A stretch of 64,000 nucleotides of DNA. It comes from Balanoglossus misakiensis (lineage: Eukaryota; Animalia; Hemichordata). Below the pieces are notes generated by a model, which ran no database searches, was not told where the DNA came from, and saw only the letters and a program-made list of their open reading frames with translations. Every line of letters starts with the position of its first letter. Position 1 is the first letter of the stretch. Positions 39,301-59,454 of this stretch are shown in pieces. The position numbers and the translations under genes are program-made. Where the stretch lies: assembly GCA_040954595.2 (NCBI GenBank), contig CM082587.2, positions 10,669,403-10,733,402 on the forward strand, given 5' to 3'.

Positions 39301-39757
39301 AAATTATGGGCACGACACTGGCCACTTAAGCTCTGCATGGCCTGGTTAATGAATGTTGACGCAAAAGTTGACCCCACCAAACACTCAAAATTAATAGGCA
39401 CGACACTGGCCACTAGCTCTGCATGGCCTGGTTAATCAATGTTGACGCAAAGGTTGACCCCACCAAACACTCAAAATTAATGGGCACGACACTGGCCACT
39501 AGCTCTGCATGGCCTGGTTAATCAATGTTGACGCAAAGGTTGACCCCACCAAACACTCAAAATTGATGGGCTCGACACTGGCCACTAGCTCTGGCCTGGC
39601 TTATCAATGTTGACGCAAGGGTTGACCCCACCAAACACTCAAAATTGATGGGCACGACACTGGCCACTAGCTCTGGCCTGGCTAATCAATGTTGACGCAA
39701 GGATTGACCCCACCAAACACTCAAAATTGATGGGCACGACACTGGCCACTAGCTCTG
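21388..39757. repeat. Satellite DNA array, 82/86-bp monomer (about 215 copies), left arm
   Basis: Unit GGCACGACACTGGCCACTAGCTCT(GCAT)GGCCTGGTTAATCAATG(C/T)TGACGCAAAGGTTGACCCCACCAAACACTCAAAATT(A/G)ATG. 78-bp variants occur at the left edge. Confidence 0.98.
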
Positions 39758-40260
39758 CCCTTACGAAAAAGGTTCTATAGAACTCTATTGAACTGTGTAG
39801 AATTCGATAGAAATTCAATAGAATGCAATTTTCTATAGAATTATATTGATGACTTCTGTGGATTTTCAGTAGAAAATCAATAGAATATATTTTCTATAGA
39901 AATTTTACTGATGACCTCTATTGAATGAAGGATGCATTTTACTAGTTTTTATCAAAATTATAGAAAATGAAATAAAAATTGTAATATTTGCCCGCTGTAC
40001 ACAATTTTTCATAAATATTACCAAAATTCAACATAAACATGTAGACTCTACAGAATTATATTCGTCTCTGGATTTTCTATAGAAAATCTGTTCCTACTTG
40101 CTATGAAATGTCTGCCCATACTCAGTTCAGAATGATCAAAGAATAAGTAATGTTTGCTTCCTTTACTTGTATAAACAGTAATACCAGTGCACTTCAACAA
40201 AAATCTATTGACTTCATGGAGTTCTGTAGATGTCAATAGATTTTCTATTGAAAAGTATTT
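39758..40260. repeat. Left terminal inverted repeat and subterminal repeats of the CACTA element
   Basis: Many TTCTATAGAA / TCTATTGA / TCAATAGA motifs in both orientations. Confidence 0.8.
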
Positions 40261-40616
40261 CGATGCATTTTCAATCAGACTCGCATTTAAAAAACAAAGT
40301 ACAAGCAAAAAAATTGTTGTATAGCACTAATTCTTTATTACAACCTGCAAAAGATTTCCGTATATGTATATATATTCAAATACAAAGAGTCCTTTACAAA
40401 AAATTTCATCACATCAAATCAGTAAAATGTTAAAAACACATCTAAAATATCAAAGATATCACACTTTAAAAATATTTACATATGATCAACTAGTATGTAA
40501 AACAAAACAAAAAACACACTTCACAGGTCTATTTGATGTCTTAAGGGTGAAGCATAGCCCCAGAGAAGACAGTTACATGTACTCAAATTTAAAACAAGCA
40601 GTTGGCTGATTAAGTA

Positions 40617-43600
40617 TTAATCCCTTTCAAATGTGTTAGGGAGAGGAGACAAGTGGAGTGTCTCTCCCATTACAAGTTCTACACATTTTTTTTTCAAAAA
40701 TGAAGGCAAGACAGCAATACTGTCATGTATAATATCATTTAGTGGTATTATGTGTGTACACTGTATACCAATTTCATTATCAACAAATAATGGCCTTCCA
40801 GTTAAATATCTCTTGACTATAACAAAAGGTTTTTCACTACAACCACAAGGATCGTCACCTTCACATACACAATCTGGCTTAACAATGACAAGACTTCTTA
40901 TTGCATAATAGTTCTGATCAGCTCCCTGAAAATGATGATTCACTCTCTTGAATGCCCTTGTATAACTACTTGTTGTAAACACAACACCCAATACCATGAA
41001 CCGATTGTAGTATTTAGCACTGACATTTGTCATACGATGGCCCACTAACTCCTCTATGGCTAACTGGTCAGTCAATCTTAATTGCTGTTTGCAGGGAGCT
41101 CCCATTGTAAGAATCCCCGAGCATCTTTGGTAGTGCCTCTCTAAAAGGACCATTCCACAAGACAATTTGTCAAATATTTTTCTCAGAACACCATTGTGAG
41201 GTATAATTGTTGATCGTCTTGATAAATCTCTCCAGCTACAGAAAGTATTTGCAATCTGTGAAGGTACATGTTGTGTTCCCTGAAACAGCTTCATGAGCAC
41301 CCCATTGTTACTTTCAAAGATAAATGATGATGTAGCCCAGAGTGGTGCCCAATGTCTAACACTGTTAGACAAATGTAATAATATGTGCATATTAAAGGAC
41401 ATACATTCTTTACCATATAGCTGTTCTGTTGTAATCACAAATTTTCTGATAACTTGCTCTGCCAGATCAATAGATTGTCTCGGTACATTTTCCTGGAGCA
41501 AGGTGTGAATCCCAAAGACCAATAAAAACCAATGGTTGATATAAACTGCAGGTAGCACACCTTTCAAAACAATCAATGAATAGAATAGAAGAAATGCCCT
41601 CCATTCTGAACCTTTCCAATATTTTCGTTGGTCTAATGAACGTGGTGTTCTAGTTATTTCATTTGGTGGGGACTGCTGTTGTAAACGAGAATTAACTAAG
41701 CGCTGCTTAGTGGGGGTTAAATACCATGGCTTCTGTTTATTTTCACTGTTAAGCCAAAGGTAGGTTACTTGTCTGACTACCCCTAACAAAACACAATGTA
41801 AATAATCTGGGACAAACCCTTGCACTATGTCAAAATTTGGAAGGAGCATACAGACACTGGGTCCCTTCACGCCTAACACTGGTTGATCATTTTCAACAGC
41901 CTGCCTGCTACACTCTTGAAATTGGTCATTATCCCTTGGCTCAGGATTAGCAAGGTCGTGCACACTATACACACGGGCATGACCATTGCCCTTGGCAATA
42001 TATTCCCCAGGGTGAAGGCACCAGTCACATCCATATTCCCCATTGTATTGCTTACAGTTTCGAATCATTGGTCGGGCTACGGAATCTGCAGTACACAATA
42101 ACACATGTGCACGTGTGTTGATCACCTCACCAGTATTTTGGTTTTGCCAGTTGAAGCCGTCGGTACACAATGCCACACACTCTTCCACAAATGGTGCCAA
42201 AAAGCAATCCATTTGTGGTTTAGTTTGACCGAACCACAGGCCTGGCATGAGGATATTCTTTTTTTGACATTTTGGTGTCAGTTCCGTAACTGTACATTGA
42301 ATGGGCCATACAGAGAAACCTGATGACTTAAAAGCTGGCACTCCATCACAATTCCAGAGAAGTGTTAAGTCATTATCCCCAACAATATTGTTAAGAAGAT
42401 CTTGATAAATTGACCCACCAAAAAGAGTTGAATTTGACAATTCACCACTTACGTTCTGATTTTCCATAAGATCCACAAGTTGATCCTTTAGTGACAACAT
42501 TATGAAAAATGTGCTATTCGTTAGAGAAGTTTGCTCACTGAATGGCTCATTACAACCAACACAAGTGTCAACTGTAATTTCCCCTTCCACCCCAATGTAT
42601 GTCATACAACTGCAACAATAAAAGTGCTTCTTACATGATACAGCAGTCTCTATGAAACATTTCTTGAAAAAATATGTTGTTGCTGGTACAGTTTCTGGAG
42701 CTGTCAAGTTAATGATATCCAATAAGTCCTGAACAGCATCTCTTGTTAGTCTGTGCCTGAGGATAAATGCCTGAAGAAGCAGACAAAGCTGGTCTGTTGT
42801 GACGTTTGTTTCTTCGTCGGCCTGTTGACACCCCTAAGAATGAGAAAAGGCAATATAAATAACACAAATATGTTCCTTAACCAATAAGGATGTTGCTTTT
42901 TTCAATTTCATGAGATAAATATCTGGTCACAGGACAAACTAGGAAATAAAACTGAATACAGCCATGCCACATGCCCTCACTTTAGCAGCAGGATCCTGTT
43001 ACAATAAAGCCCATAAAGGCATTAGCACCACAATTTACCCACAATTCCCTGTGATTGATACTATCATGTGTTACAACTTTTTCAATGCAATAACCAATGA
43101 ACCATGTCATTGAATCAAATAAAAATTTCGCTAGATTTTACAGAAATCTTAAAAAATACCATTTTATGTGCAAAAAAGTCACTCTCTAGGTATGTCGTCA
43201 TTTTGGGTACTAAATCAGGTTAACATACATTTTTTTGTCTTGTCAATTGGAAAAGGCATTATTAAAAAAGACATTTCGTTTTATTTTTTTAACAAACACA
43301 ACAATATCTCTACATGAAAGTGCACTGTGAGATAGACATTGTCTAATGTAACATGACTTACAAACCACACACACACACCAGCTATCCTGTGACTATGTGG
43401 TATGTTGAATCAAGAAGTAAGACTTACCAATTCATTATCAAGCAGATATGGTCCTATGCCAGTCACACCATTTTCTCCATTCTGCATGTTTGCATGAAGA
43501 GTCTCTCCATCGTCTGTTGTGTCTGTTTCTGCAATTATGTTTTCATTGTTGTCCTGTTCACTGCTACAAAAACTTTCACTCAGATCGTTGCCATGAACGG

Positions 43601-44532
43601 TTTCATCATCATCCAAATGTCCCTCAATATCAGTTTCAAAACTGCTGAGAATGTCATCCTCTGTGACATCACCATTATCAAGGCTACCTGTGTTCAGAGG
43701 TTCAGATCCAGCCCCATGATCACTACAAGCCAGAATTTCATCTTCATCTTGTTGAATTGAGGTGTCATTGTGCTGAAAGATGAAAACAACCACATATAAG
43801 GAAGCGCCTTCCATCAAATTAATGTACAAGAAAACTTTATCTGAAAATGAGTATGTGAATTTTTTTTTCTAGTCAGATCGATTACAAAAGCATAGAAAAC
43901 AAACTCATATTATTATGCGGGAGTCAATGTAAACCCCCACCCCCACCTCGGGCGATACAGGACAAATGTGGGAGATTCGACCGTTTTGGCCATGAAACTG
44001 TGCCCGAGGAGGTGGGGCAATTGCCTCATTTTGATCCCCCTATTCCTTTCTTGGAATTTATGAATGCCACCCATGGGGGTGGGGGAAATGTGGGGGATTA
44101 ACTTGTATCAGGTGGGGATTTTCAAGATTGTTTTGCCCCAGGGGTGGGGCATTTGACAGATTTGCACCAGACCATTCGCGATTCTTGTCGAAATTGTACC
44201 AGAAACTCGGGTCGGTCATGGAGGTACTAAGAGTACCTCGATCCATGGGTCGATCGGGCCGTTAGTATAAAATATCCCACAAACGCAGGATTACGTGTTT
44301 GTTTGCCTAAAGCAAACATCGGTTCTTGTGCATCATGCATGTCGCCATGGAGGACAACGTACGCGTACATGGTTTGGTTACTTTTAAAAAACATTGGAAG
44401 TGATCTGCAATTAGTACATACCTCAAAACAATTGTTATTACGATGCCGCCGCCTCGTCAAAGTTCTTTTTGGAATACCGGCTTCAGGATCCCTCAGGTAA
44501 CGTTTGTATGGACCACGCTTCGAGTTAGACAT
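40617..44532 (-). CDS. EnSpm/CACTA-type DDE transposase, 3 exons (44532-44422, 43772-43428, 42833-40617), about 890 aa
   Basis: Motifs WNCDGVP, WPI, ADSVAR, YNGEYGCDWC, PDYLHCVLLGV, WKGSEWRAFLLFY, NMHILLHL and SSFIFESNNG. GT-AG introns are both phase 0 and join the exons into one open frame. Exon 2 is acidic. Confidence 0.88.
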
Positions 44533-44828
44533 GTCTACGTCTTCGATCGATGTAAAGGTCAACGCGACTCAGCTGATCTGACGCTCAACTAGGAAATACG
44601 TACGTAACGTCCGGTCATGTGACGACCATGTGACTTGTTGAAAGTAGACAGATTTCGGAGGTAATGCGACTGTTTGATAGTAAACCTTCGAAAGCCACGC
44701 GAAATTAGTTTTCAAACAATAAATATATACCCCCAAAATATCCAACTTAAATGCAATATGAAAAATTAAAAAAAAAAAATACCCCGGGGTTGTATTGGAG
44801 CTTTTCCCAGCATGCATCACGGCGCGTC

Positions 44829-44836
44829 TATATAAG
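44829..44836 (+). promoter_or_regulatory. Putative TATA box of the BEN gene, separated from it by the Gypsy insertion
   Basis: TATATAAG. In the reconstructed empty site it lies 30 nt upstream of an Inr-like TTCA (A at 55837) and about 120 nt upstream of ATG 55927. Confidence 0.5.
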
Positions 44837-44847
44837 TGCCAACGACC

Positions 44848-45142
44848 TGTAGCGTTTTCCCCAACTTCAACGCCACGGAAAGGTTTCCCTAGTCAATGCC
44901 CGTAACGCATACTCACCTAGTTGAGTGCGTGCAGGCGGTCCGGGTCCAGAGCAAGTAGAGCGTGTAGCACCAGACCATGGACGAGACGAGAGAGAACCCC
45001 GACTTCCGGTCCCACGGTGTTATATATACCCTTCACGGGGTCACGTGACAGGTCACATAAGGGTCACCACCTAATCAGCATTTCCACAGGAATCTCCAGG
45101 CACTGGCATACTCCAGGTGAGGTTTTCTCCAGAAATACCACA
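44848..45142 (-). repeat. 3' LTR (295 bp)
   Basis: TGTAGCGTTTTCC...AAATACCACA on the plus strand. No differences from 55527-55821 seen by eye. Confidence 0.96.
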
Positions 45143-45160
45143 CTCTCCCCTGTTTTCTTC
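45143..45160 (-). other. Polypurine tract
   Basis: Minus strand GAAGAAAACAGGGGAGAG abuts the 3' LTR. Confidence 0.85.
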
Positions 45161-45523
45161 TGGAGCGATGGGTTCCGTGTGGACCTCTGGAAACTGGGAG
45201 ATTCCTTTCATAGATGGTTAGATGATTATGGACGGAACAGCCGATTCGAATCAATCCGGGATATGGCACGTTTTTCTTTTTTCTCTTTTGGGGACTTTTT
45301 AGAGCCATACCGTCGAGATCGATTCTTACACGATGGTGGCAAACACAATTTTACTGCCACTGGGGAGGGACCGGAAGTAACAAAAATCAACAAGCAAAAA
45401 TATCCCCAGTGGCGTGGGCCCAGATAAAAGGGAAAGACCCATGGAAGGCAGCTCCGGATGTAATATGGATTTCACAGTCAAACACCAATACTGCAGCCTA
45501 GGACCCCCCCAAAGATTACCCGT

Positions 45524-47893
45524 TCAGTCGAAGCCGTACAAGCGCCTGGTGTTGTTGGCAGCAGCTTCCAGTAGTTGGTTCAGAGGTATCCCCCGCCGCG
45601 CCGCAACCAGGACAGCAACATCTCCGATAAAGGCTGGAGTGTTGGGCTTGGCACCATTGGCCACAGGGAAGTACGGGGAGTCCGTCTCCAAGAGAAGACG
45701 ATCCTCTGGCACCGCCCTGAGTGCTTCAAGCTGAGGGGTAGAAAAAGTGTTAACACCAGCATTAAAGCTGAAGTAACAGTACGGATAATCCCTGGTCCAG
45801 CACTCGACCACAAAACGATCTCCAGTGAAGCCATGGAAGTGGATCAACTGCTCACTGGCGCAGTACTCACGAACGAGTTCAAGAGCCCTACGCCCGACAG
45901 CAGCAATACACACATCTCCCGTAGCTCCTCTGATGTGCAGAACCAGGACCTTCCGTGGATCACACAGGGAAAGGGCCAACCTGAACACGGTCTCCTGGAG
46001 AGGCCATTTGTCTGCCGCAACAGAGAAATCTAACCCAACCTCCCCAACTGCTGCCACCTGAGGGGATTGGATTAATTCCTTGAACTTCTCCAGTCGATTT
46101 CCAGTCAGTGTTGCCGCCTGTTTGGGATGTATTCCCACAGCAATTTTCCAACGCTTACTCCGGGAAAGATTGGTGGGAAAAGTCGTAGGGTCACAGTAAA
46201 CCTCCACCCCACCCAATACGGGAATCCCCGTCAGGGATTTCAGCATGGAAGGGGAGGAGACCACTACGTCCGATGTCACGCGGGTGACAGTACCCCGCCA
46301 CGAAGAAGTCAATCGATCCAAATGAAAATGAGAATCAAAGGCTCCTAGTGGCGAAGCCGCACTGCCAACGCATTTCACCTTACCCTTAGACTTAGTCGGG
46401 GGAGGACCTACATCCAAACGCTGGCTCCCTGAAGCAGAAGCAGTTGCCGAGGCAATCAAATCTTGCACTTCCTGTGATCGGGACACAGTGCACGACTTCC
46501 TGGGCAGAGGATGGCTTTGCTTGGTTTTCTTGGCCTGCAGAATCTGCCGATCCCCGCTGAAGAGGCCTGCAAACTCCGCTCTCTGCAAAGGAGAAAGAAA
46601 ACCCAACAAAACCAAGAGCACTCTCCAGTGAACGAGTACAGCGGGAGAATTTGGCGGGTGGAGTCCAAACCGTAGCATGGGCTCCCACCCCAAATCCCTA
46701 CATAGCTGATGCATCAAAGGAAAATACTCTTCCTCTACCGATGAAACCGGCGGAAGAAAGACATGGCCAAACCGCTTGAAATAAACCAACAAGCTCATGG
46801 CCGGTGAACCTGGTGATCCCCCAACAATCCAGGAATGGAGAATGCCCAAAGCATGGAACACTCTCCAAGCCTCGAAAGGATGATCACCCCGGAGTACCGG
46901 AGGAACATGCTTACCCAAGACATGAGCCCTGAGGTCCACAGTTACCTCCGTGCACTCCGGCAAGGGACAACGAACATGACCTGCCGGCGGTATTCCAAGG
47001 TAGCCTGGGGGAAGAGGAACGAGAGGGGGTTGCCCTAAACCAACCGGGAGAAAAGCCTCACTAAAGGGTCCGACCAGAGAAAGAGGGCCAGATCGTTGCA
47101 CCCGCTGACTCCCTGCGGAGCCAACAGGAGGCTGATTCAGAACCCCCTTCCCCTTCTTGCCTTTACTGGACTTCTTCTTACCCCGGCCGGTTGCCACCAC
47201 AGCCTTCCTCACCGCTGGTCCTCGTTGCGGGCTAGCCGTTTCCATAGGCGCAGGAAGTACTTCCGGCGCTGCCTCCACCGGGGCAGAGACCAACACCGGT
47301 TGCACCTCCGGTATGGATCCAACCGGTGGACATACCAGTTCCCCCGCCCCCGGCCCCCGAGCGCGTTGGACGTCTGGCAGAGGTGCTGCGGGCAGCACCT
47401 CTTGCGGGATATCTGAGTGCACAGACTCCCGCTGCCATCTTTCCACTTGCTCAGGGTCCTGAAGACGGAAGTCCCGGTACATACCATCAGGTGGAACTTC
47501 ATACGAAGCCGACTTCTTGGACCTTTGGGGAGCAGACCAGGTGTTTTCTCTTGGATTTGGATGAGGAAGATGTTCATCAATCCAAGCGCGATCAAAACCA
47601 AGGCAAAGATCGACGTCTTTGCGCAGGGCTCTGATCCATCCCCATCGCTTCCTCCGGGCTGCTATGGTGTATTGACCGATCAGGAGCTCCTGGCCCTGTG
47701 CCACAGACCGGTCAGGTCCCATGGAAATAACCCCGATGCCATTGACTAGCTCCCGAACTTGCCAAAGGAAGTCATTGGTGGTAGCATCGGAGATCTCCTG
47801 GCTAAGACGCTGGCGAGCGGCACTCGGACCAGTCGGAGCGACCTCCTTCCATTGGCGCTTGGGCGAGGCAGGGGGAGGAGACGAAGAAGCCAT
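45524..47893 (-). CDS. Gypsy ORF3: Pro/Ser-rich N-terminus, C2H2-like motif and C-terminal TatD-family metal-dependent nuclease domain (about 789 aa from ATG 47893; frame open to 47968)
   Basis: TatD motifs FDSHFH, VGIHP, AVGEVGLD, VLHIR, IHFHGF and LLLETDSPY in about 45527-46345. CPLPEC-x9-HVLGKH at about 46907-46969. Splice acceptor immediately before ATG 47893. Confidence 0.88.
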   Translation of the reverse strand: MASSSPPPASPKRQWKEVAPTGPSAARQRLSQEISDATTNDFLWQVRELVNGIGVISMGPDRSVAQGQELLIGQYTIAARRKRWGWIRALRKDVDLCLGFDRAWIDEHLPHPNPRENTWSAPQRSKKSASYEVPPDGMYRDFRLQDPEQVERWQRESVHSDIPQEVLPAAPLPDVQRARGPGAGELVCPPVGSIPEVQPVLVSAPVEAAPEVLPAPMETASPQRGPAVRKAVVATGRGKKKSSKGKKGKGVLNQPPVGSAGSQRVQRSGPLSLVGPFSEAFLPVGLGQPPLVPLPPGYLGIPPAGHVRCPLPECTEVTVDLRAHVLGKHVPPVLRGDHPFEAWRVFHALGILHSWIVGGSPGSPAMSLLVYFKRFGHVFLPPVSSVEEEYFPLMHQLCRDLGWEPMLRFGLHPPNSPAVLVHWRVLLVLLGFLSPLQRAEFAGLFSGDRQILQAKKTKQSHPLPRKSCTVSRSQEVQDLIASATASASGSQRLDVGPPPTKSKGKVKCVGSAASPLGAFDSHFHLDRLTSSWRGTVTRVTSDVVVSSPSMLKSLTGIPVLGGVEVYCDPTTFPTNLSRSKRWKIAVGIHPKQAATLTGNRLEKFKELIQSPQVAAVGEVGLDFSVAADKWPLQETVFRLALSLCDPRKVLVLHIRGATGDVCIAAVGRRALELVREYCASEQLIHFHGFTGDRFVVECWTRDYPYCYFSFNAGVNTFSTPQLEALRAVPEDRLLLETDSPYFPVANGAKPNTPAFIGDVAVLVAARRGIPLNQLLEAAANNTRRLYGFD

Positions 47894-47924
47894 GTCTGTG
47901 GACAATGAAGAGAAAGACAATAGA

Positions 47925-50900
47925 TTAAGAACATGCCGGACAAGTATAAACAGAAATCCTCCGCGCATCCCTGGTCGTCACCCCAACGCAGTGTCCATGG
48001 TACCACTCCGAGCAAGCATCACACTGGATCATGAACTCACCACGATAGGGCTTCCGACAAACACAATATAGTGTCGATGATACATCGGCGATCTCTGCCT
48101 TACCTGTACTATGCCGTTTGAGATTTTCTTGATACCTCATGACCCATTGGGGCAGGTCTCGGCTCCGACATAGCTTAAGTCGATCATGGTGGGCAGTTAC
48201 TATGGCCCGCTGGAATTTTACCTTATACAAGTATGGTGTTAACTTGTTGATAATAATCCCAGGTCCTTTCCACGGACGACTTAATTTCCGGCTTTTCCCT
48301 TTTCCTACTGCAGATTCAAGCATGTAAACGCAATTCCCTACCTCGTAAGAATAAAGGTTTACCCTTAAATCATAATTCCTCTTCATTACTTCTTGGGTAG
48401 ATTGAAGTTTGGTCCTTGCTATCTCATGCGCAAGCTTGATAGCGGACTCAAGCTCACAGACATGGTCCTGCGGCTCCTTACCTTTGACTGATGATAAGCC
48501 AAATACGAGGTCGGAAGGTTGATTGACTTCACGACCAAGCATTAGCTTATTGGGGGTGAATCCTGTATGTCTATTGATACAGGACCGGAGAGCTCCAGCA
48601 ATTTGTGATAGATACACATCCCAGTTTCGCTGAGTTTTGTCCACAAAACATCGAACTGCATCCATTATACTTCTGTTGGCCCGCTCCACTTGTCCATTTG
48701 CGGAGGGCCGGTAGGGTGTAGTCCGGGTCTTGTGAATGTGTAGCACGTCACAAATTGCGGAGAACAGTTTACTCTCGAAGTTAGCGCCCTGGTCAGTGCA
48801 GATCTCAAATGGATAACCAAATCGCGAAAAGAAGTTTTCCACGGCTGCATGTGCTGTTATTTCCGCGGTTTGGGATGGAAGTGGTATGCACTCCACCCAT
48901 TTCGTGAACTGGTCAACCATTACAAGAACACACTCATTCCCTCGTGCTGTTTGAGGTAGTGGGCCCAGGAAATCCAGATGGACACGCTCCATAGGGGCGC
49001 CAGCATGGAACTTGGTTAACGGGAATCGGGATCGACGCACAGGTTTCTTGCTAGTTGCACAGACACTACAAGAAGTAATAAACCGGGTGATATCTCGAGA
49101 CATACCATACCAGAAATATTTCTCCCTGAGTTTGGCTTGAGTCCTGGTAATCCCCTGATGTCCTGCAGCAGGAATGTTGTGATTTAACTCCACGACCTCC
49201 AACTGCAGCGATCTGGGCACAACCAGGGTCACACTGTCATCCAGTTTCCTCCATATGGTCCCATTTTCAATAAAGAAGATATCCCTGTTAATCCAATAAT
49301 ACTTGGCTGCCGGAGAAGACAAGAATATCTCATTACTGCTTGGTTCCACTTTCGATGTAAGCCATGGCCACAGAAAAATCAGATCTGCATCCTGTTGCTG
49401 GGCCTGACCGATTTCCTTGGTCGTATACCCCAAAAAGGTGCTGCCTTGGGTGTCTTGGTGAAACCGTGTAACAACACAACATTTTGGGGAGGATACGGTT
49501 TTAATTATCTCAACTGAGGGGTACATAGTATCCAGGTCACTAATAGTACCATCCTCAGGAGATAAAGGATCCCAGCAGATGAAATCCGATTCCCATGGCC
49601 ATTTTGGAAACTGGTTGGTGACTTGCAGTTGAGCAACCTTGAGGGTCGATTCGGTGTCCTTGCCCTGATAAGGAAATGAGACTAGTGGTACTACATCATC
49701 CACATCACTGGTAAAACGAGCCCAATTGTCATGTGCACGAGTACAGTAGTAACATCCCCCACAGGGTAGATTTCCTGGTCTAACTTCGATGGAAAAATCG
49801 CAGCAAACTTCACCATGGGGCTGGCGTGATAAAGCATCGGCGTTACTGTGCTTCTTCCCAGGTCGGTGTTGTACGGTCATGTTGTATTGGCTAAGTTCTT
49901 CCAGCCACCTTGCCAGTTGTCCTTGGGGGTCCTTGAACCGTAGGAGCCAGACAAGACTGCTATGGTCGGTTCTGATAGTAAATTGGTTCCCCAACAGAAA
50001 ATGACGGTACTGGCGAGTAAACCGTACCACTGCTAGCAGCTCCTTCCTGGTAGTACAATAGCGTCGTTGCTCAGGGGTAAGGGCATAACTTCCATAAGAA
50101 ATTACTTTTTCCTCCCCATTCTGCACTTGCAATAATTCAGCTCCAATGGCGAAGTCCGATGCATCTGTATCTAAAATAAAAGGATCGGTGTTGCTGGGCA
50201 AAGCGAGCACAGGGGCAGACAACAAAGCCTCTTTCAATGTGTCAAAAGCCTGCTGTTGTTCCTGACCCCAAATGAAAGCTTTTTTCCCGGTAACACCATA
50301 GAGAGGAACAGCCGTATTAGCGAAATCTTTGATGAAAGCTCGATGGTAATTGGCCAATCCCAAAAACTTCTCAACATCTTTGGTGTTCTTAGGTACGGGC
50401 CAATCCTTGACTGCTCGAATGGAACTTTTATCCAACTCCACATTGCCGTTCCTGATGATGCGCCCCAAGAAGACGACTTCTCTTTGAAAGAGATCGCACT
50501 TCTTGGGTTTCAGTTTTAGTTGGTAGTGACGCAGTCGATCAAAAACTTTCCGCAAGTAGGTCAGATGGTTGTCGAATGAAGTCCCAAGCACGAGAATGTC
50601 ATCAATGAAGGCTAACACGATATCCCAAGTAAGACCTCTGAGTACTAGATTGATGACTCTGGAGAATGTGGCTGGAGCATTGCAGAGACCAAAGGGCATT
50701 CTATTGAATTCAAACAAACCATATTTGGTGGTGAAGGCAGTTTTCTTCTGGTCTTCTTCCTTGATTCTAATCTGCCAATATGCTGAGTTTGCATCCAATT
50801 TTGAAAACCACGTTTGTCCTGCCAATGTATCCAGACATTCTTCAATCAGAGGTAGAGGGTAGACATCTTTGGTCGTGTGATCATTTAATGCACGATAATC

Positions 50901-52124
50901 GACACACCAACGAACTCCCCCATCACGTTTTCTCACTAGTACTGGAGCAGAAGCCCACTCGGAAATAGAAGGTTGGATAACCCCTGCATCTAGCATCTTT
51001 TGAAGATGTGCCTCTTCTTCCTGCGCAAAACACATGGGTGTCCGGCGCATCCGCTGTTTGACTGGCTTGGAATCACCGGTGTCGATCTGATGTTGAATGG
51101 TGGTGAAGTTCCCCAGATCAAATTCGGTTTTGGCAAACACATCTTCATACTCGATAAGTAGATCTTGCACTCGAGCTTTTTCTTCATCTCGTAGATGGAT
51201 GCCAGACCTCTCCAAGAGATCATGAAGATGTACAGGGATTTCGTCCTCCTCTGTTTCTCCGTTCCTTTCCTTGCATTCGACAGGTTGAAGTGAAACAGCC
51301 CCTACCTCTACCGCATGAGCGATGACCTTGCCTCTTCGAAGGGTCACAAACTCATCAGTAGGGTTGACTATGCAAACTTTAGGTGTCTGTCCTCCTGAAT
51401 GGAGTGTACGTGGTATCAGTACCGGTAGATCTTCTGTTGATTCAACCACATACTCAGACATGGAGTCACGCATAGCACATGGCAGTCTAATTACAGTATT
51501 TGGGGGGATCCGTACCCTATGCAAGAGAGCGACTTTTGCGATCTTGGGTTCCCCTATTACTGTACCAAACTGCAAGGGTATTATTTCATCCTCAATCCGA
51601 AGAATGTTGTTGAGTAAATCTAGATGGACCCCATGAGACCTAACAAAGTCGATGCCTAGGAGCATTTCGTCCTCAATGGGAGCCACATAGACTCGCTCCG
51701 AGTATAGACCTTTTCCCAATCGGATGTCAACCGGACCCACCAAAAACCCCTTCATCTTCAGCTCCCTTCCGGCAGTTTGGAAGGTCACTTGGTTAATAAT
51801 GGGCGGTTTAACATCTAACTGGTCAAAGAACTTATCAGAAATGATAGTTACTTCCGAAGCAGTATCAATTATCGCTTGGGTATCATGTCCTTGTATCCGA
51901 AGTGGAACGCGGTACATTTTACCGGAACGCAATTGACAAATAGTTAACAATTCATGTGAATCGTTAACCCCATCTACGGAAGACAACGCAATGTTACCGT
52001 CTCCTACCACCCTCAAACCGTGGCGCTCCTTCCGAGTTACCTCTGGAGGAAACACCCCGCTCTTTTGGATGGATGAAGGGATAACATCACTATGATGGTG
52101 GTGGCCTGTCGATCTGGGGGTCAC
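47925..52124 (-). CDS. pol: Gypsy Pol: aspartic protease, reverse transcriptase, RNase H, integrase and C-terminal PHD finger (probably translated by -1 frameshift from gag near 52154)
   Basis: Protease IIDTASEVT. RT CVDYRALN, MPFGLCNAPATF and AFIDD. RNase H TDASD, KELLA and TDH. Integrase HHCC, HLD / TDQG / VER and WKGP. Terminal C4HC3 PHD finger. Confidence 0.97.
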   Translation of the reverse strand: MTPRSTGHHHHSDVIPSSIQKSGVFPPEVTRKERHGLRVVGDGNIALSSVDGVNDSHELLTICQLRSGKMYRVPLRIQGHDTQAIIDTASEVTIISDKFFDQLDVKPPIINQVTFQTAGRELKMKGFLVGPVDIRLGKGLYSERVYVAPIEDEMLLGIDFVRSHGVHLDLLNNILRIEDEIIPLQFGTVIGEPKIAKVALLHRVRIPPNTVIRLPCAMRDSMSEYVVESTEDLPVLIPRTLHSGGQTPKVCIVNPTDEFVTLRRGKVIAHAVEVGAVSLQPVECKERNGETEEDEIPVHLHDLLERSGIHLRDEEKARVQDLLIEYEDVFAKTEFDLGNFTTIQHQIDTGDSKPVKQRMRRTPMCFAQEEEAHLQKMLDAGVIQPSISEWASAPVLVRKRDGGVRWCVDYRALNDHTTKDVYPLPLIEECLDTLAGQTWFSKLDANSAYWQIRIKEEDQKKTAFTTKYGLFEFNRMPFGLCNAPATFSRVINLVLRGLTWDIVLAFIDDILVLGTSFDNHLTYLRKVFDRLRHYQLKLKPKKCDLFQREVVFLGRIIRNGNVELDKSSIRAVKDWPVPKNTKDVEKFLGLANYHRAFIKDFANTAVPLYGVTGKKAFIWGQEQQQAFDTLKEALLSAPVLALPSNTDPFILDTDASDFAIGAELLQVQNGEEKVISYGSYALTPEQRRYCTTRKELLAVVRFTRQYRHFLLGNQFTIRTDHSSLVWLLRFKDPQGQLARWLEELSQYNMTVQHRPGKKHSNADALSRQPHGEVCCDFSIEVRPGNLPCGGCYYCTRAHDNWARFTSDVDDVVPLVSFPYQGKDTESTLKVAQLQVTNQFPKWPWESDFICWDPLSPEDGTISDLDTMYPSVEIIKTVSSPKCCVVTRFHQDTQGSTFLGYTTKEIGQAQQQDADLIFLWPWLTSKVEPSSNEIFLSSPAAKYYWINRDIFFIENGTIWRKLDDSVTLVVPRSLQLEVVELNHNIPAAGHQGITRTQAKLREKYFWYGMSRDITRFITSCSVCATSKKPVRRSRFPLTKFHAGAPMERVHLDFLGPLPQTARGNECVLVMVDQFTKWVECIPLPSQTAEITAHAAVENFFSRFGYPFEICTDQGANFESKLFSAICDVLHIHKTRTTPYRPSANGQVERANRSIMDAVRCFVDKTQRNWDVYLSQIAGALRSCINRHTGFTPNKLMLGREVNQPSDLVFGLSSVKGKEPQDHVCELESAIKLAHEIARTKLQSTQEVMKRNYDLRVNLYSYEVGNCVYMLESAVGKGKSRKLSRPWKGPGIIINKLTPYLYKVKFQRAIVTAHHDRLKLCRSRDLPQWVMRYQENLKRHSTGKAEIADVSSTLYCVCRKPYRGEFMIQCDACSEWYHGHCVGVTTRDARRISVYTCPACS

Positions 52125-52160
52125 CTCCAGGCCTAATCGGTGGACCCCTTCCCGTTTGGG
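52103..52160 (-). promoter_or_regulatory. Programmed -1 ribosomal frameshift signal (slippery heptamer plus H-type pseudoknot)
   Basis: C CCA AAC in the gag frame (52160-52154), 5-nt spacer, stem 1 GGGGTCCACC/GGTGACCCC, and loop GGCCTG pairing with downstream CAGGCC. The pol frame is -1 and open across this site. Confidence 0.8.
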
Positions 52161-54172
52161 GGTTCCGAAAAGGATACCCTACGCTCTGGGGAGGTGAAGC
52201 GACGTGAAGGTGAGGCAGTGCAGTCCCGTTGAAAATGTCCAGGTTTTCCGCAGCGGTAGCAGTTGGACCTACTGGGAGAAGGAGATCTTGATCGTGCACT
52301 AACCAAACCCTCAAGTTGAAGAGCCATCTTATTTAAGGTAGATGTAAGGTCCGCTAGGTGGCGCTCCATTCGTGACATCCGTCGCTCCACTTCACCAATG
52401 GGGGAGGCCTGCTTTGACGTCCCTGGAGGGGTGGTAGACATGGCTTTTACCTCAATAGCTTCCTCCCCGGTCTGAGGAGAATCCTGGCTTACATACCGAA
52501 CCCGAGGTGGTGGTGGTCGGTCAAAAATGGCTCGGCGGTTGTATTGATGCCATTTTATTAGGTTGATAGCCTGTTCCATCGACCGAGGGTAGTTATTGGC
52601 GGCATACTGCCCAGCGTGCTTGTCAATACACCCCTGACAAAAACGTAAAACAGCCTGTTCCATCATAAATGAATCGGATACTCTGCTGTATGCGTTGGTA
52701 GCTACAGTTAGGATCCTATCAGCCCATTTGTTCAGAGGCTCGTTGGGTTCCTGTTTCTGTTGCAGGAAATCCAAATGGGCTGTCTCTGGCAGTTCTTTAT
52801 AACCAAAGCGTTGCTCCAGTTTGAGCAACAGATCCATGTAACGAATATTCGGTTCGTTCTCCAGAATGATGGTGTAACAGTCCCCAGCTTCTCCATCCAG
52901 ACACCAGCACAGTTGTTCACGTCGTACATCAGCTGACCAACCCTGGGAAGTTGCATATTTGGAAAATCTCATGACAAAGGATTTCCAACTTCCCTCCCCA
53001 TTAAAATACAGATTTTTGGGGAAATGCCGGGGTTGGATAGCGTCTGCCCCCTGATGTCTTGGTGCATGGACTCCTGGAAGGGTATTTTCGGAATGAACAT
53101 TCTGTCTTGAAGATGTCCCAGCAAGCATGCCTGGCGTCAACCCATATGCCCGGTCACCCGCTCCAAAGTGTTGCGAAGTTGCAGACGGAACATTCATAGG
53201 CGGATTAGCTGTTCTATCCAATGAATGTAGACCCTGGGTGAATGTATGCGGTGCACTGCCATGCACAGATGATGATGGCATTCCAGGGTGAGCTATAGGA
53301 TGACCAGTATAGGATTGCGCCACCATCGGTGGTAGGGTGACAGGAAAATACCCACCCAACGATGGAACAAAATGCCACTGGACAGAGGAGGTTTGTGGGC
53401 CAGACCGCTCTCCACAATACGGAACCGATGGTGGAACACCCCGGGGGTGTCCAGTCACAGGCACCGATTGCTGAAAAGCAGAAGGGGTCACAACAGTTCC
53501 TGGTGCAGCTGGAACAGGTGATTGCAAACGAGAATGTGACCATGGGGTATTAACCACCGGAGCTGATTGTCGTGCATAAGTGGGCAGCGCAGAGGTCGTC
53601 ATCGTTTCCATCAGTGGAGTGCTGCCGGTGACTTGTGGTGTACGCAGTGATCTTCTAGGAACCGTTCCGGATGCTGGAGTGAACGCGACGGATGGTGCAG
53701 CAATTGCAGACCCTGGTGGGACCATGACCGCTGGGCCCGCGCACGCAAAATCATCATCAAATGACATCTGTCCAACATCCGACCCAGGACCATCCAGACC
53801 ACGCACAACACTCCTCCTTGATGACGGTGGCATGGATAACTCATCAATCTTCTTTACCACGTTATCGATGATAGGATCCCTCCGCGATGACCTTGGGGTT
53901 GCTGGAGGTTCGGGCAGCTTAGCCGGTGAAACCATGAAGCTTGCATCCTCCAATTCCACATCGGATGGCGGCCCGAACGGTGAAAAATCGACACGAGCCT
54001 TGAAATCTTCCGAGATGTTGATGTGGGGCAGGGCCAGAACATGTTCCCATGTAAGGTTTCCCATCCGTTCTCGTTCAGTTAGCAAGGTGTTGGCCGATGC
54101 TCTTCCAATCCCATAGATGGTAATCAACTCATCCAAAGTACAGTGGTTAATGTACACCCTAGCCATTGTCAC
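52133..54172 (-). CDS. gag: Gypsy Gag with N-terminal ComEA-like helix-hairpin-helix, capsid-like region and CCHC zinc knuckle
   Basis: N-terminal VYINHCTLDELITIYGIGRASANTLLTERERMG. Capsid-like FNGEGSWKSF...QEPNEPLNKWADRI. Knuckle CYRCGKPGHFQRDC. Confidence 0.92.
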   Translation of the reverse strand: MTMARVYINHCTLDELITIYGIGRASANTLLTERERMGNLTWEHVLALPHINISEDFKARVDFSPFGPPSDVELEDASFMVSPAKLPEPPATPRSSRRDPIIDNVVKKIDELSMPPSSRRSVVRGLDGPGSDVGQMSFDDDFACAGPAVMVPPGSAIAAPSVAFTPASGTVPRRSLRTPQVTGSTPLMETMTTSALPTYARQSAPVVNTPWSHSRLQSPVPAAPGTVVTPSAFQQSVPVTGHPRGVPPSVPYCGERSGPQTSSVQWHFVPSLGGYFPVTLPPMVAQSYTGHPIAHPGMPSSSVHGSAPHTFTQGLHSLDRTANPPMNVPSATSQHFGAGDRAYGLTPGMLAGTSSRQNVHSENTLPGVHAPRHQGADAIQPRHFPKNLYFNGEGSWKSFVMRFSKYATSQGWSADVRREQLCWCLDGEAGDCYTIILENEPNIRYMDLLLKLEQRFGYKELPETAHLDFLQQKQEPNEPLNKWADRILTVATNAYSRVSDSFMMEQAVLRFCQGCIDKHAGQYAANNYPRSMEQAINLIKWHQYNRRAIFDRPPPPRVRYVSQDSPQTGEEAIEVKAMSTTPPGTSKQASPIGEVERRMSRMERHLADLTSTLNKMALQLEGLVSARSRSPSPSRSNCYRCGKPGHFQRDCTASPSRRFTSPERRVSFSEPPNGKGSTD

Positions 54173-55511
54173 AGTTCACAATCTTAATTTACACAAGCCT
54201 TGGATGCAAAAACTTGAGCAAATTAAATTACCCTCTGATATGTTTAAACAAATCTAGAAATTTTCTTTAAACTTGAGAAAACTATCAGTTAATAGATTTA
54301 TACAAGTCTAACTAGTAAACTTGGAAAATCTATATGTTACTAACTGAATTCAATCTAAATTTAGACAAGTCCCCAAAAAGCCAAGAAATTCGGAAAAATC
54401 AAGCGAAGTGTCACTATGCAATCACACAAGCCACAGATTTCTCCACGAACTTGAATAAAGTGACGACACAGATCCAAATCCCCAATTCTAATCAATCTCA
54501 AAGCTCCTCAAAAACTTGAAGAAACTCGATAAATTCAGTACAGGGAAAAGGGACAAGTGCTGTTTTTCTCGTGGGAAGACTTTTTTTTCAAAAAGGCCGA
54601 AACAATTGCACAGAAAAAATTCCTACACTCTTGGATACAAGCACGAATTGCAGGACCCTAACAGTGGTAGAAATCTCCTGAACCCTTGCAGTAATTGTGA
54701 TATGCGATCACCCACTTTCAGGATGACCACAAATTATCACTACTGCAATATTACCCAAATGACCCACAAGGAAAATGCTCTCAGTGATAGAAGAAATTAT
54801 TGACCTGTTATATTTGTTGGTCGGTTTTTTTTTATTACTAGAACGTAACAATATTTTCGACCTGTTATATTTGTTGGTCGTTTTTTTTTTTTTTTTTAGT
54901 ACTGGAAATATCTAAGCTATCCCAGAAATATGCAACAATAACGAAGATATCCAGTAACAACAGAGTCAACGCTTCAAACTAAAATTCAAATTACCAGGTG
55001 GTAGGTAAATTTGCACAAGAATGACTGAATTCCCGCGTCAAACGCTATTCAAAGAAAAATTCCCGCTCCACAAATGTTATGCAATCTCTCAGCGAAATGC
55101 TTTCAAAAATAATCCCGACAAAAATGCAGTAAATAATCCACACAAATGCCGACACAGGAAGATTTAATTCAACAAAACGCATGAAAAACTACACACAAAC
55201 GCTGCACCGGAAAGTTCTAGGTTTCACGAATGACAAGAATTCCCAAACTCAAGTACAAAAAAACCCGAAACTAAATAAGCAAATTCCCGCACACACTTTC
55301 ACTTCCAACACAATTACTTACGATCCTTTGGTGATACGGAAAATCTGCTCACTCAGGTAAATCACACAAGCTACTCAAATTCACCGATGAGCACCAGTAC
55401 AGAAACACCACAGTCTCCGGGTAATTTTTTTTTTTCCTTTTACTTTTTCCGCCCGAAAACAATGGGTCTTGTACTTACCCACTCCCCTCAAAAATTCCGC
55501 AGGGAAGAAGT

Positions 55512-55525
55512 TGCTCGCAGCGCCA
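55512..55525 (-). other. Primer-binding site, probably tRNA-Ser
   Basis: Minus strand TGGCGCTGCGAGCA lies 1 nt inside the 5' LTR boundary. It is complementary to a Ser-type tRNA 3' end (...UGCUCGCAGCGCCA); isoacceptor not verified. Confidence 0.75.
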
Positions 55526-55526
55526 A

Positions 55527-55821
55527 TGTAGCGTTTTCCCCAACTTCAACGCCACGGAAAGGTTTCCCTAGTCAATGCCCGTAACGCATACTCACCTAGT
55601 TGAGTGCGTGCAGGCGGTCCGGGTCCAGAGCAAGTAGAGCGTGTAGCACCAGACCATGGACGAGACGAGAGAGAACCCCGACTTCCGGTCCCACGGTGTT
55701 ATATATACCCTTCACGGGGTCACGTGACAGGTCACATAAGGGTCACCACCTAATCAGCATTTCCACAGGAATCTCCAGGCACTGGCATACTCCAGGTGAG
55801 GTTTTCTCCAGAAATACCACA
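55527..55821 (-). repeat. 5' LTR (295 bp) with TATA box and candidate splice donor
   Basis: Direct repeat of 44848-45142. Minus-strand TATATATAA at 55707-55699, palindrome GTCACGTGAC at 55719-55728, and AG|GTGAGT at 55595. Confidence 0.95.
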
Positions 55822-55926
55822 GACCTTCTGACCTTCACACAGCTGATTTGCTCGCTATTGTTCACAACCATAACAACGCTCCGGCTTTCGAATTTTTCTA
55901 CAAACTGTTTTACCAAACGTCCCACA

Positions 55927-58900
55927 ATGAAGTACGCTTTATTCGACTTCTTCGAAGAACAAACTATTGAAGTAGGCGAGACGGCATGGATTGAGGATCT
56001 CGATGAACAGGACGCTAATGAGTTCGATTTGGAAGAAGAATGCGTCGTCTTGTGGCCAACGAAGAAACAAGGAAAAGGTTCTGCGACTTTGAGATATGCG
56101 GCTAGAGTGATCAAGTTCAGCGGTAAGAACTGTTTCCAAATTCTAAAACACTATGAAAGTTTTTCCAGTTGTAAACTTTTTGAAATACTTAGTCGTGCTG
56201 AAGGTGTTTCATTTCAAAAGTTTGAATTACCCGCCGTTTCCATTAAGTGTAAATACAGCACACATCTTGTTTACTTCCTGTCCATTGTTTTAAATTTGCA
56301 TAATAAAAGAGTTGCCACCAGGGACTTACATGTGTAACAGTGTTGCCCTGGTAATAATTGCGCAGAAGTTGTGATATTTTTGTTCTTCTTTCTAGATGAC
56401 AAACAACAGCTGTTGCGTCTTGCAAACGTATATGCCAAGAAGGGAATTGATGCATCTGTGACACTGAAGACTCCAGAATATGGTCGTGGCAAGCGCGAGA
56501 AGGCACCAAAGCGAATTATAAGTGACACTGAAGATGATGAGGAGGAGGAGGAATGTGTACCGGTAAGTTGATCTCTAAGATGGCATGTTAGTGTAGCTGT
56601 ATTCAATTCCTTTGCAATGCAGGGATTGATTTGTGATGTTATTCCTACACACAATGCACATTGGATTTTGAATCTATACCGCCACATGTCATCATGTGAT
56701 GATTTACCTGGACAAGTGTGTCCTATGCTAATGTCCACCTGTACCTAAGCAAAATTAACTTGCATGAGATCAGTGCGAATATGCACAGAAATATTTCAGC
56801 ATCATCTTGGGTGAATAACAGGTGCTCAATATAATTGTACACGTCTTTTGATACTTTCCAGCAAATCTCAAGAAAGAAGAAAAAGTCAATCAACAAGGAC
56901 CTGTCGTTAAGTCTCCTGAGGAAAATAAATAACAAAAAGCCAGTGCATTTAAAGAAAAAAATGGAGAGTGATGTCAACTCTGTCCTCTCAGTAAGTACTG
57001 TCAATAAGAGAGGTTAAGTTACTGCAGTCTGCGCACATTTCATTATGATTTAACTTAGTGAATTTCTTAGTTGAATTCCATCATTTTATCTTAAATTGTT
57101 ATCATGCATTTCTCTTGTTTGAATACTTCTTTTAGTTTAATTAATTAGTGTTTGTACCTGTAGTTTATTTCCTAACACATTGTATTGTTTATAACCCAAG
57201 CTGTTATGATTCCTGACCCAAGCTGTGAAGATAGTTATGACTATACTAAGTATCAGTTTCTCACATGTATCACATCAGAGCTAATAGCCAATCACATTAC
57301 AGTGCAGGGTATTGATACATATTCCTTACATTCCAGAGTGCCAGTTCCTCTTCATCGACATTTGACTCAGGAGAAGACTTGCGCCAAGAAAATAGGGCTT
57401 TAAGAGCAGAAAATGTTGCTCTTCGCAACACAATCACAGTCTTAAGAGGTAAGATAATATATTGTTGGACTGTCAATTATGTCTTTGCTGTATTGGTTCA
57501 GTTTAATAAACTGCTTAATTCGGGTGATTCCTAGAATATTAGCTTTGTGCTTTTGACCGCCTTTTTAGCTATTGGCCTAGGTGATAAATGGTGCTGGGAT
57601 TTAAATCAAATTCTTCTCTTATGGCCAGACATATGATGTTCAGTAAGGACTGAAATTGTGATGATTGAGCTCAATTAGTGTCTAGAAGCAGTAAATGGAT
57701 AGATTCTTCAGGAGCGGAATTGACAATTATATCGATACAAATCCTTCTTTTGAGGTATATTAACACTATTTTTTGTGTTTCTCAATGATACAGAGTTACC
57801 TAGCCTGATTGGTCAGATAGCGGAGTTAAAAAAGTCTTCTGGTAGTGGTGTAAAATTAGCAAGTCCAAGCAATGTTGCCTCGGTGGACAGTCAAGAGGTA
57901 TGTCATTATTATTAATTTTAATTTGACTATTGGCTCTTCAAGGGACAAAGTCTCTCCCTCGCTACCCCTTTTCCATTAATTATGCTTGATACAAGACACT
58001 GTTATGTTATTCTACATGTGGATATATAGTGAATTAATGTTCGACCAAACACAACTCTATCCCGTTTGTAGGATATGAGAGTAAAAATCTAGCCCAAATG
58101 AATAAATGGTTAACACCGATTATTCATTTTGGTGAGTTTCTTCACTCTTGTGTGTACAAGTGGGATGGAAGTTGTGTGTGGTTGAACGTTCATTCATTAT
58201 ATATCAACATGTAGAATAACATAACCGGTATCTTGTATCAAACATAATTAATGGAAAAAGGGCAGCTAGAGAGAGACTTTTTCCCTCTAATGAATTGAGA
58301 CACAATCACTTTAAAAAACTTACCTTACTTTTCAATCACTAACAAGTTGTCTGTGATGCAAATTCAGTCCATCATATGTCATATGCATACGAGAGCATTC
58401 CATAGACATTTTTCTGGTATAATATGTTCTAGTGAAAGTTTAATAATGGTACTTGGATTGATATTTTGGTTTATGTGTCTTTCTTTGGTTTTGTATTTGG
58501 CAAGTTGGTCAAAATATTGTTTCATGATGAAATCTTCCATTTCTGTTTACCATTTCCCCAATACAACTACATCATTATTTTTTTTTCAGATTACAGTTGA
58601 TGGTAAGGTTCTGGTGACTGCACAGCAGCTGAGATGCTGTGACAATTCGTCATAAAAAAAAATGACATACGATTTAATGAACGTTTTGTTCGATAAAGAA
58701 ACAATGAGAAGCCACTCATATAGTGGTCGTGTTTGTAATGCGGTGCCTGGCAGTGTAGCCAAGCCAGCGCTGAATGCTGAAAAGCTAAATGCCCTGAAAG
58801 GTATGTATCTGATGTGTTACTTCAATTTATCCAATGTGTTGCACCTTGAAAACTGTTGAGCTAAAATTGTCAGTTTTAGGAATTTTTGGGTGTTTATAAA

Positions 58901-59221
58901 TTTAACATCTATGGAGTTGCCAATGTTTAACACATTTTTTTTTAATTTGTACTATCATGGGCCAAGTAGAAATCCAGTTTGCTCATATTGGTGTTTCTGC
59001 AATCTTTGTAGTGTAAATTGGTAAATTCAAAACAGATTAAATTATGAAATATTTAAATTGAGATTGGGTGTGTGCAATATTTCAGTAATGGAAAATTGTT
59101 CAGATATTTATTTCTGGTTTTTCTCTCCACAGATTACATATGTAGCAAATTCGGCTGCAAGAAGGCAGAAGTGGAGCAACATATCAAAATGAAAATGTAT
59201 TCTGAATCCAAACACAAGTAG
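55927..59221 (+). pseudogene. CACTA accessory gene encoding a coiled-coil plus BEN-domain protein, 7 exons, 335 codons, with one in-frame TAA
   Basis: Exons 55927-56122, 56396-56562, 56862-56990, 57337-57448, 57794-57897, 58590-58800 and 59133-59221, all GT-AG with matching phases. BEN-like DLMNVLFDKETMRSHSYSGR...KPALNAEKLNALKDYICSKF. TAA at 58653-58655. AATAAA at 59241. Confidence 0.8.
57935..58290. repeat. Long imperfect inverted repeat (fold-back) in intron 5 of the BEN gene
   Basis: Arm 57941-58070 (agggacaaagtctctc...atcccgtttgta) is reverse-complementary to arm 58156-58286 (tacaagtgggat...gagactttttccct). Confidence 0.85.
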
Positions 59222-59454
59222 CAGATTTAGTTTAGTTAAAAATAAATAGTGAAAGTAGTGAGGTTTTTTTAGTATTATTATTTAGTTTTTGCTTTGAAAT
59301 TTGTTTTTTTTAAATGTATTCTTTTTTTCAGTTATTTGTAATAAAAATGTTTTTTCATTATAATTTTATGTGTTCTTTCATTTTTTTAATGTTTCACTGC
59401 TTCATCCATTTGGCGTGACAAGAACAATATACATGCATCAGAATGCAATGAAAT

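Follow-up and report, generated by a model that had tools for sequence, protein, structure and literature searches.

The integrase-bearing Pol polyprotein of a Ty3/Gypsy retrotransposon in Balanoglossus misakiensis ends in a PHD finger. The PHD tail is genuine, and it is conserved across a widespread clade whose named hosts are molluscs, sea urchins and an acorn worm. Alignments and a predicted fold place the finger in the H3K4me3-reader subclass (the PHF2/BPTF/DIDO/Cfp1 class), and it probably binds H3K4me3.

An intact Ty3/Gypsy element

The window that we analysed is a 64,000-nt stretch of contig CM082587.2 (GCA_040954595.2), and all coordinates refer to it. It contains an intact Ty3/Gypsy element on the minus strand (44848-55821), with identical 295-nt LTRs and a 4-bp target-site duplication. 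The features of the element are the following.

44848..55821, minus strand: whole Ty3/Gypsy LTR retrotransposon, 10,974 bp, young and apparently intact (LTRs, ORFs, Pfam)
55527..55821, minus strand: 5′ LTR, 295 nt, TG...CA (100% identity to the 3′ LTR)
44848..45142, minus strand: 3′ LTR, 295 nt (100% identity to the 5′ LTR)
55510..55525, minus strand: primer-binding site starting TGGCGC, adjoining the 5′ LTR (sequence)
45143..45161, minus strand: polypurine tract before the 3′ LTR (sequence)
44844..44847 and 55822-55825, no strand: the two copies of the 4-bp target-site duplication GACC (sequence)
52133..54166, minus strand: gag ORF with PNMA-like capsid and CCHC knuckle (ORF, Pfam)
47925..52178, minus strand: pol ORF, 1417 aa from stop to stop, stop-free (ORF, Pfam)
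about 51908-51645, minus strand: protease (Pfam)
50936-50460, minus strand: reverse transcriptase, RT (Pfam)
50270-49884, minus strand: RNase H (Pfam)
49220-49044, minus strand: integrase H2C2 (Pfam)
48998-48705, minus strand: integrase DDE (rve) core (Pfam)
48266, minus strand: GPG motif, integrase GPY/F-like (sequence)

The presence of TG...CA LTRs, primer-binding site, polypurine tract and target-site duplication identifies an LTR retrotransposon, and the pol order protease–RT–RNase H–integrase, with intact catalytic motifs, identifies it as Ty3/Gypsy. We take the TGGCGC start of the primer-binding site to be tRNA-Ser-like. Gag and pol overlap, with pol in the -1 frame, and an in-phase C-CCA-AAC slippery heptamer is present at which -1 frameshifting would take place. 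A Cys/His cluster between RNase H and integrase (CCD...CGGCYYCTRAH, about 49640-49900, minus strand) has the look of an extra zinc site.

In sequencing run X1, contigs of the element have depths of 217-297 and the LTR a depth of 440, compared to 21.5 at the junction of this insertion; these depths show a multi-copy family and are not a copy number. The run possibly stems from the sample that the window comes from. One contig joint in the same run connects 48308 to 55512 and skips 7203 nt, at a depth of 41 and with just 29 letters on its shorter side. It agrees with a depth step from 273 to 217 and suggests an internally deleted derivative that retains the PHD end and the third ORF (ORF3, described below). 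The element had no match in a viral sequence collection.

A PHD finger of the H3K4me3-reader subclass at the Pol C-terminus

The last 48 aa of the translated pol frame form the PHD finger, in which the following positions were assigned.

47928..48071, minus strand: PHD finger, C4HC3 (Pfam, PDB match, fold)
48068-48066, minus strand: cage position Y1371 (alignment to solved readers)
48047-48045, minus strand: cage position Y1378 (alignment to solved readers)
48032-48030, minus strand: cage position M1383 (alignment to solved readers)
48005-48003, minus strand: cage position W1392 (alignment to solved readers)

The motif quoted in the initial annotation is followed by one extra Ser and a TAA stop at 47927-47925. 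Pfam detects PF00628 at the Pol C-terminus with an E-value of 1.3e-9 (38.3 bits, cut-off 24), and the same domain occupies the same place in 111/120 of the listed relatives (the best 120 of 930 matches). A chance match is excluded by these scores together with this recurrence; translation, Pfam, PDB matches and relatives all confirm that Pol ends in a C4HC3 PHD finger, as the initial annotation had proposed.

The best PDB sequence match of the Pol tail is the PHF2 PHD (E 4.6e-17, 8f8y), followed by BPTF, PHF8 and DIDO1, which bears out the assignment to a PHF2/PHF8/BPTF-class pattern, and the predicted fold agrees. Y1371, Y1378, M1383 and W1392 align to Y, Y, M and W in PHF2 and PHF8 and to Y, Y, Y and W in BPTF, positions that we take to form the methyl-lysine cage of the host PHDs. 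An AlphaFold model of the finger, built on a 34-sequence alignment, has a pLDDT of 89.5 and superposes on H3K4me3-bound BPTF, DIDO and PHF2 at rmsd values of 0.8-1.2 Å; a fold search with the model returned PHDs as matches. The best matches overall are PHF2, Cfp1, BPTF, DIDO and PHF8, several of which have been solved with an H3K4me3 peptide. The finger thus has subclass, cage positions and fold in common with the host readers PHF2/PHF8/KDM7A, BPTF, DIDO and Cfp1, at 44-56% identity. The net charge of this copy's PHD is +2, compared to a family median of -2 (6.5% of 107 are equally basic), which could weaken its binding to a basic histone tail.

Against the PHD family profile, the scores of PHF2 and Cfp1 differ by no more than about 1 bit, and the donor family is therefore not singled out. 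A region search for a donor gave two candidates, with one match, an SNF2-helicase-PHD protein, and a protein-cluster (Atlas) query gave clusters of the element itself and of generic PHDs.

It is rather improbable that the finger recognises, in place of promoter nucleosomes, a non-histone protein that carries methylation or a mimic of a histone, supplied by the host or by the element itself (Gag or ORF3). The PHF2 PHD, the best sequence match, has also been solved with a VRK1 N-terminal peptide (7m10, 8f8y), and the relevant passages of one screen report H3-tail binding by just 31/123 human PHD constructs (PMC6979384). However, the same passages list the KDM7A, DIDO1, PHF and ING families as positive (PMC6979384), and the nearest relatives of the element's finger are those solved with H3K4me3.

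Conservation and selection of the PHD finger

Homologues were searched with the last 491 aa of Pol, which gave 930 matches among 4946 candidates. The query included the PHD, so the best 120 of the 930 lean to PHD-like matches. Named hosts among the listed matches are Ostrea, Pinctada, Nucella, Haliotis and Lytechinus for PHD-bearing sequences, and Ptychodera, Gigantopelta and Elysia for gene models that have no PHD. All eight zinc ligands are present in 106/120 listed relatives. Residues were counted in the 110/120 with at least six of the eight ligands aligned; the remaining ten are truncations, frameshifted sequences or sequences that lack the PHD, and in two of the ten a PHD is present that the cut misaligned.

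Among these 110 aligned PHDs (from the best 120 of 930), the cage Met and the cage Trp are both invariant (110/110 each), and the first cage position is aromatic in 107/110 (Tyr 93, Phe 14). The second cage Tyr is found in just 15/110, with Asp in 56, Trp in 21 and Cys in 8. Asp1387 is kept in 95/110 and Glu1391 in 92/110. Among 17 distant representatives listed, Met is lost in two and Trp in one. An Asp at the fourth cage position also occurs in Drosophila Cfp1, of which structure 9c0o is titled as H3K4me3-bound. The family thus retains three core residues and varies in the fourth wall, a pattern that still fits K4me3 reading. The intact Y-Y-M-W cage named in the initial annotation therefore holds for this copy, in which all four residues align; as a description of the family it needs narrowing to the three conserved positions.

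Averaged over alignment columns, identity amounts to 0.80 for the integrase core, 0.65 for the PHD and 0.18 for the linker that immediately precedes the finger. At the DNA level, synonymous positions have reached saturation, while the median pN is 0.30 (351 pairs among 27 sequences, namely 26 stop-free loci and the window), and the closest informative pair has a pS of 0.39 and a pN of 0.013. We conclude that the PHD evolves under purifying selection.

At the level of loci, the PHD is present in 48/77 of those with at least 700 nt after the integrase core, including all 43 with a core identity of 65% or more. It is scarcely credible that the PHD is carried along neutrally, or that a chimera with a host PHD gene arose in the assembly or the gene model: Pol is one continuous ORF inside identical LTRs, the same fusion recurs in 111/120 listed relatives and in those 48/77 informative loci, and the finger is under purifying selection. 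Some matches (L081-L096, P0008, P0018 and P0031) are animal retrotransposons filed under bacterial MAGs (Sedimenticola, SUP05, Ca. Thiodiazotropha); contamination by host DNA is the most likely reason.

PHD-bearing and PHD-less integrases

An integrase tree of 152 rows, with 35 close PHD rows drawn at random and nine outliers dropped, groups 45/48 PHD rows in one clade of 59 with a support of 1.0. The PHD-less rows within this clade are mostly cut short or off frame at the PHD start. In a 48-row IQ-TREE analysis, 16 PHD rows form a clade at an SH-aLRT of 100 and three lie outside. The integrase tree does not establish independent captures: in an AU test, one origin for all PHD rows is not rejected (p 0.55).

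A sister Pol outside the main PHD clade, P0228, carries an ING-type PHD in the same place (residues 1937-1985 of a single 1986-aa ORF on a 6.4-kb contig), and all PHD matches of this finger are ING/YNG/PHO23. This one sequence suggests a second capture of an H3K4me3-type reader.

In the PHD-less sisters, the integrase closes with an acidic, disordered tail that has a basic R-x-G-R-x-x-P-like motif, which a regular expression matched in 39/58; a fuller form, T-R-x-G-R-x-x-R-x-P-like, is seen in PHD-less relatives among P0186-P0320. The tail and motif are possibly an ancestral chromatin or nuclear anchor.

ORF3 encodes a TatD nuclease

Downstream of pol, the element carries a further ORF that the initial annotation had overlooked, although its PHD call itself stands.

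45524..47893, minus strand: ORF3, 789 aa (ORF, Pfam, fold)
about 46978-46556, minus strand: C2H2-like zinc finger and conserved unnamed domain of ORF3 (alignment)
about 46339-45533, minus strand: TatD nuclease domain of ORF3 (Pfam E 2e-37)

ORF3 starts 31 nt past the pol stop, and a pyrimidine tract and CAG right before its ATG have the look of a splice acceptor. The protein comprises a helical N-domain, a disordered region, the C2H2-like finger with the unnamed domain, and TatD. The last is supported by Pfam (E 2e-37), PDB (E 4e-16) and fold search (E 9e-13), which identify ORF3 as a TatD protein and not as the envelope of an env-bearing (errantivirus-like) Gypsy element. The HxH, E, H, H and E-T-D motifs, presumably metal-binding and catalytic residues on a TIM barrel, are all present, as is the TIM-barrel fold. 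In 33 TatD proteins aligned from 54 matches, E617, H652, H686, E735 and D737 are kept in 33/33, and H521 and H523 in 32/33.

A TatD lies downstream in 29/30 PHD-positive loci and in 7/11 PHD-negative loci, counted among loci with 3.5 kb downstream or a TatD match, a rule that inflates both fractions; the loci also derive from a small number of samples. Because TatD is found with and without the PHD, ORF3 appears to predate the PHD acquisition. It is a separate accessory and would likely serve as a metal-dependent nuclease, with replication intermediates or competing nucleic acids as its substrates. The literature on TatD and retrotransposons, in a search covering few subscription papers and no Repbase Reports, yielded no link between TatD and LTR elements.

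The insertion site lies between two divergent transposon genes

The element is inserted in another transposon, which itself lies in a satellite array.

39757..59962, no strand: EnSpm/CACTA-like DNA transposon hosting the insertion, with 24-nt TIRs and a 2-bp TG duplication (repeats, Pfam)
likely ATG 44532, large exon 40617-42833, minus strand: Tnp2 transposase gene of EnSpm (Pfam)
likely ATG 55927, plus strand: BEN-domain gene of EnSpm, head-to-head with Tnp2 (Pfam)
44829..44836, plus strand: TATA-like box of the promoter that the insertion interrupts, with its end 7 nt short of the target-site duplication, in CpG-rich DNA (sequence; promoter function inferred)
21603-39758 and 59964-61530, no strand: 86-bp satellite array (82/86-bp units), about 20 kb, about 214 and 19 copies (tandem repeats)

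The result is a three-level nest, with the Gypsy element inside an apparently intact EnSpm/CACTA-like transposon inside the array. Dispersed tandem repeats of 216-239 bp also occur in the window at 11346-15746.

The insertion falls in the 416-nt gap between the two head-to-head ATGs of the 9.2-kb EnSpm-like element. The CpG o/e at the site is 1.36, compared to a median of 0.38 for the window, and 4.3% of 299 overlapping 400-nt windows are as high; the site is a single case, selected post hoc within the 64 kb. Judged by its sequence, it would be a CpG-rich divergent promoter of the EnSpm-like transposon, and it fits what promoter targeting predicts, with n = 1. The CpG richness of the host EnSpm may be ancestral. 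Satellite arrays are usually heterochromatic.

Promoter-proximal insertion could also have come about by another route, through open DNA or contact with TBP/TFIID, the PHD merely adding affinity; we regard this as improbable, and slightly more so than a non-histone ligand. A TATA-like box is 7 nt away, which places the site nearer the expected position of TBP than that of the +1 nucleosome, and Ty3 and Tf1 use transcription-factor tethers. Against this route, we identified no further motif that could act as a tether, and the linker ahead of the PHD shows no conservation.

For further insertions, we examined the flanks of 80 metagenome and 16 genome-collection loci, which are short, circularly permuted or collapsed repeat contigs. 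Self-comparison of those above 4 kb and of all 16 found no complete element with identifiable flanks in the 96 loci. Among five listed sequencing runs, none recorded as RNA, contigs revealed no joint from an empty site, and the loose ends that they gave were short and insufficient for statistics on insertion sites. A missing TSS enrichment among old, fixed copies may reflect post-integration selection, as discussed in passages of de Mendoza et al. (PMC6673714). As selection removes promoter insertions, a lack of enrichment in old copies would not refute targeting.

A proposed role in integration targeting

On balance we lean, with modest confidence, towards a likely role in targeting: the PHD would bind the trimethylated H3 tail, tether the integration complex at promoter nucleosomes and bias insertions to active promoters. 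Once -1 frameshifting and protease cleavage have taken place, the mature integrase would still carry the finger, which sits at the end of a linker with little conservation. Tyr/Phe, Met and Trp, with a variable fourth wall, would cage K4me3, and the conserved Asp1387 and Glu1391 may help to hold the H3 N-terminus. The tethered intasome would then insert in nearby open DNA, here between the TATA-like box and the expected start site. The gain for the element would be an expressed, germline-active landing site, often another transposon's promoter.

In favour of targeting we count the reader subclass, the conservation of the PHD and its purifying selection, the CpG-rich, TATA-proximal site and the precedent of chromodomain and MBD; against it stand the satellite setting of the host EnSpm, the second Tyr in only 15/110, the losses of Met and Trp and the basic charge of this PHD. 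Published work also bears on both sides. The chromodomain steers MAGGY to H3K9me regions, according to passages of PMC6673714 and bioRxiv 10.1101/2021.11.30.470311. Counting against targeting, passages of Grau-Bové et al. (bioRxiv 10.1101/2021.11.30.470311) argue that targeting of active chromatin is harmful to the host, and the relevant passages on Chlamydomonas Gypsy-7a_cRei, one Gypsy-PHD element with insertion data, report an intergenic enrichment that the authors were unable to disentangle from effects of selection.

Unlikely, though far from negligible, is a function of the same H3K4me3 (or me2) reading in docking the pre-integration complex on chromatin or holding it in the nucleus, or in maintaining the activity of the element's own LTR, without a strong site bias. 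All sequence and fold evidence fits this equally well, the basic-motif tail of the PHD-less sisters (39/58) could be a general anchor that the PHD replaced, and PHDs occur in many transposon proteins other than integrase tails, as passages of PMC6673714 and PMC8557442 describe. However, it is the site-choosing enzyme that carries the fusion, and the single insertion that can be seen lies in TATA-proximal, CpG-rich DNA.

Comparison with known systems

In chromoviruses, the chromodomain lies C-terminal to the integrase GPY/F-like motif. The initial annotation had equated the place of the PHD with that of the chromodomain; the finger does lie C-terminal to the GPY/F-like motif. Partial descriptions of chromoviruses such as MAGGY show a histone-reader domain at the end of a Gypsy integrase and the same tethering logic. 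The element here differs in having a PHD and no Chromo domain (Pfam; the fold search finds PHDs), in a predicted mark that is active H3K4me3 instead of heterochromatic H3K9me, and in its extra TatD ORF3. It would function in the manner of a chromovirus whose predicted target is the reverse, and its domain content is not that of a chromovirus.

Gypsy-7a_cRei likewise has a PHD in a Gypsy polyprotein (Gag-Pol), and targeted insertion was suggested for it, but it is from a green alga and its legend gives the order PHD before INT; the relevant passages of its description contain no cage analysis, H3K4me3 claim or TatD. As presented in parts of PMC2836005, Ginger1-9_HM is an animal element with a PHD C-terminal to a Gypsy-type integrase; unlike the element here, it is a TIR DNA transposon with the PHD after a Ulp1 protease, and it is 1/16 tabulated Ginger1 families. 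CopiaMBD (de Mendoza et al. 2019, PMC6673714) also captured a host epigenetic reader proposed to bias insertion, with flank statistics given there; it is a Copia element with a methyl-CpG reader and, in the passages concerned, a bias to methylated repeats. Bdelloid Juno and Vesta carry captured enzyme genes (a DEDDy exonuclease and an esterase) in the env position, according to passages of PMC5408684, in the main text of which 'tatd' is absent, whereas the element here has a TatD-fold nuclease with a full metal-binding set. For molluscs, PMC6238403 defines the Gypsy clades MolGy1-16, Osvaldo/Gmr1 and CsRN1, and 'phd' and 'tatd' are absent from its main text.

PHD fingers have already been reported from transposons, a Chlamydomonas Gypsy among them; passages of PMC6673714 and PMC8557442 describe them in many transposons and suggest that they read histone marks. 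The portions of Grau-Bové et al. (bioRxiv 10.1101/2021.11.30.470311) that we drew on catalogue 823 chromatin–TE fusions, which may already contain members of this clade. The literature on PHD with integrase, Gypsy or H3K4me3 targeting, apart from Repbase Reports and most subscription papers, held no description of this animal clade, for which a prior Repbase annotation is possible. No relevant PHD/TatD passage was found in PMC3286476, PMC6962438, PMC12801592, PMC5890265 or bioRxiv 10.1101/2023.10.26.564294.

Implications

Known self-encoded integrase readers steer away from genes, the chromodomain to H3K9me and the MBD to methylated repeats. We give slightly less than even credence to a broader reading, in which a large and old Gypsy clade of marine invertebrates is the active-chromatin mirror of the chromoviruses: it would aim its own H3K4me3 reader at promoters, perhaps after more than one capture in related lineages (of PHF2/Cfp1 and ING type), and carry a catalytically intact TatD in the env position throughout. 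The TatD ORF3 represents a further class of captured nuclease, one for which our search, covering few subscription papers and no Repbase Reports, found no LTR-element report. Because PHD-bearing and PHD-less sister families are closely related, they offer a clean natural comparison within the same genomes. If the targeting role is true, a built-in H3K4me3 reader aims these elements at active promoters without a borrowed host tether, and such elements would be strong regulatory mutagens in mollusc and echinoderm genomes.
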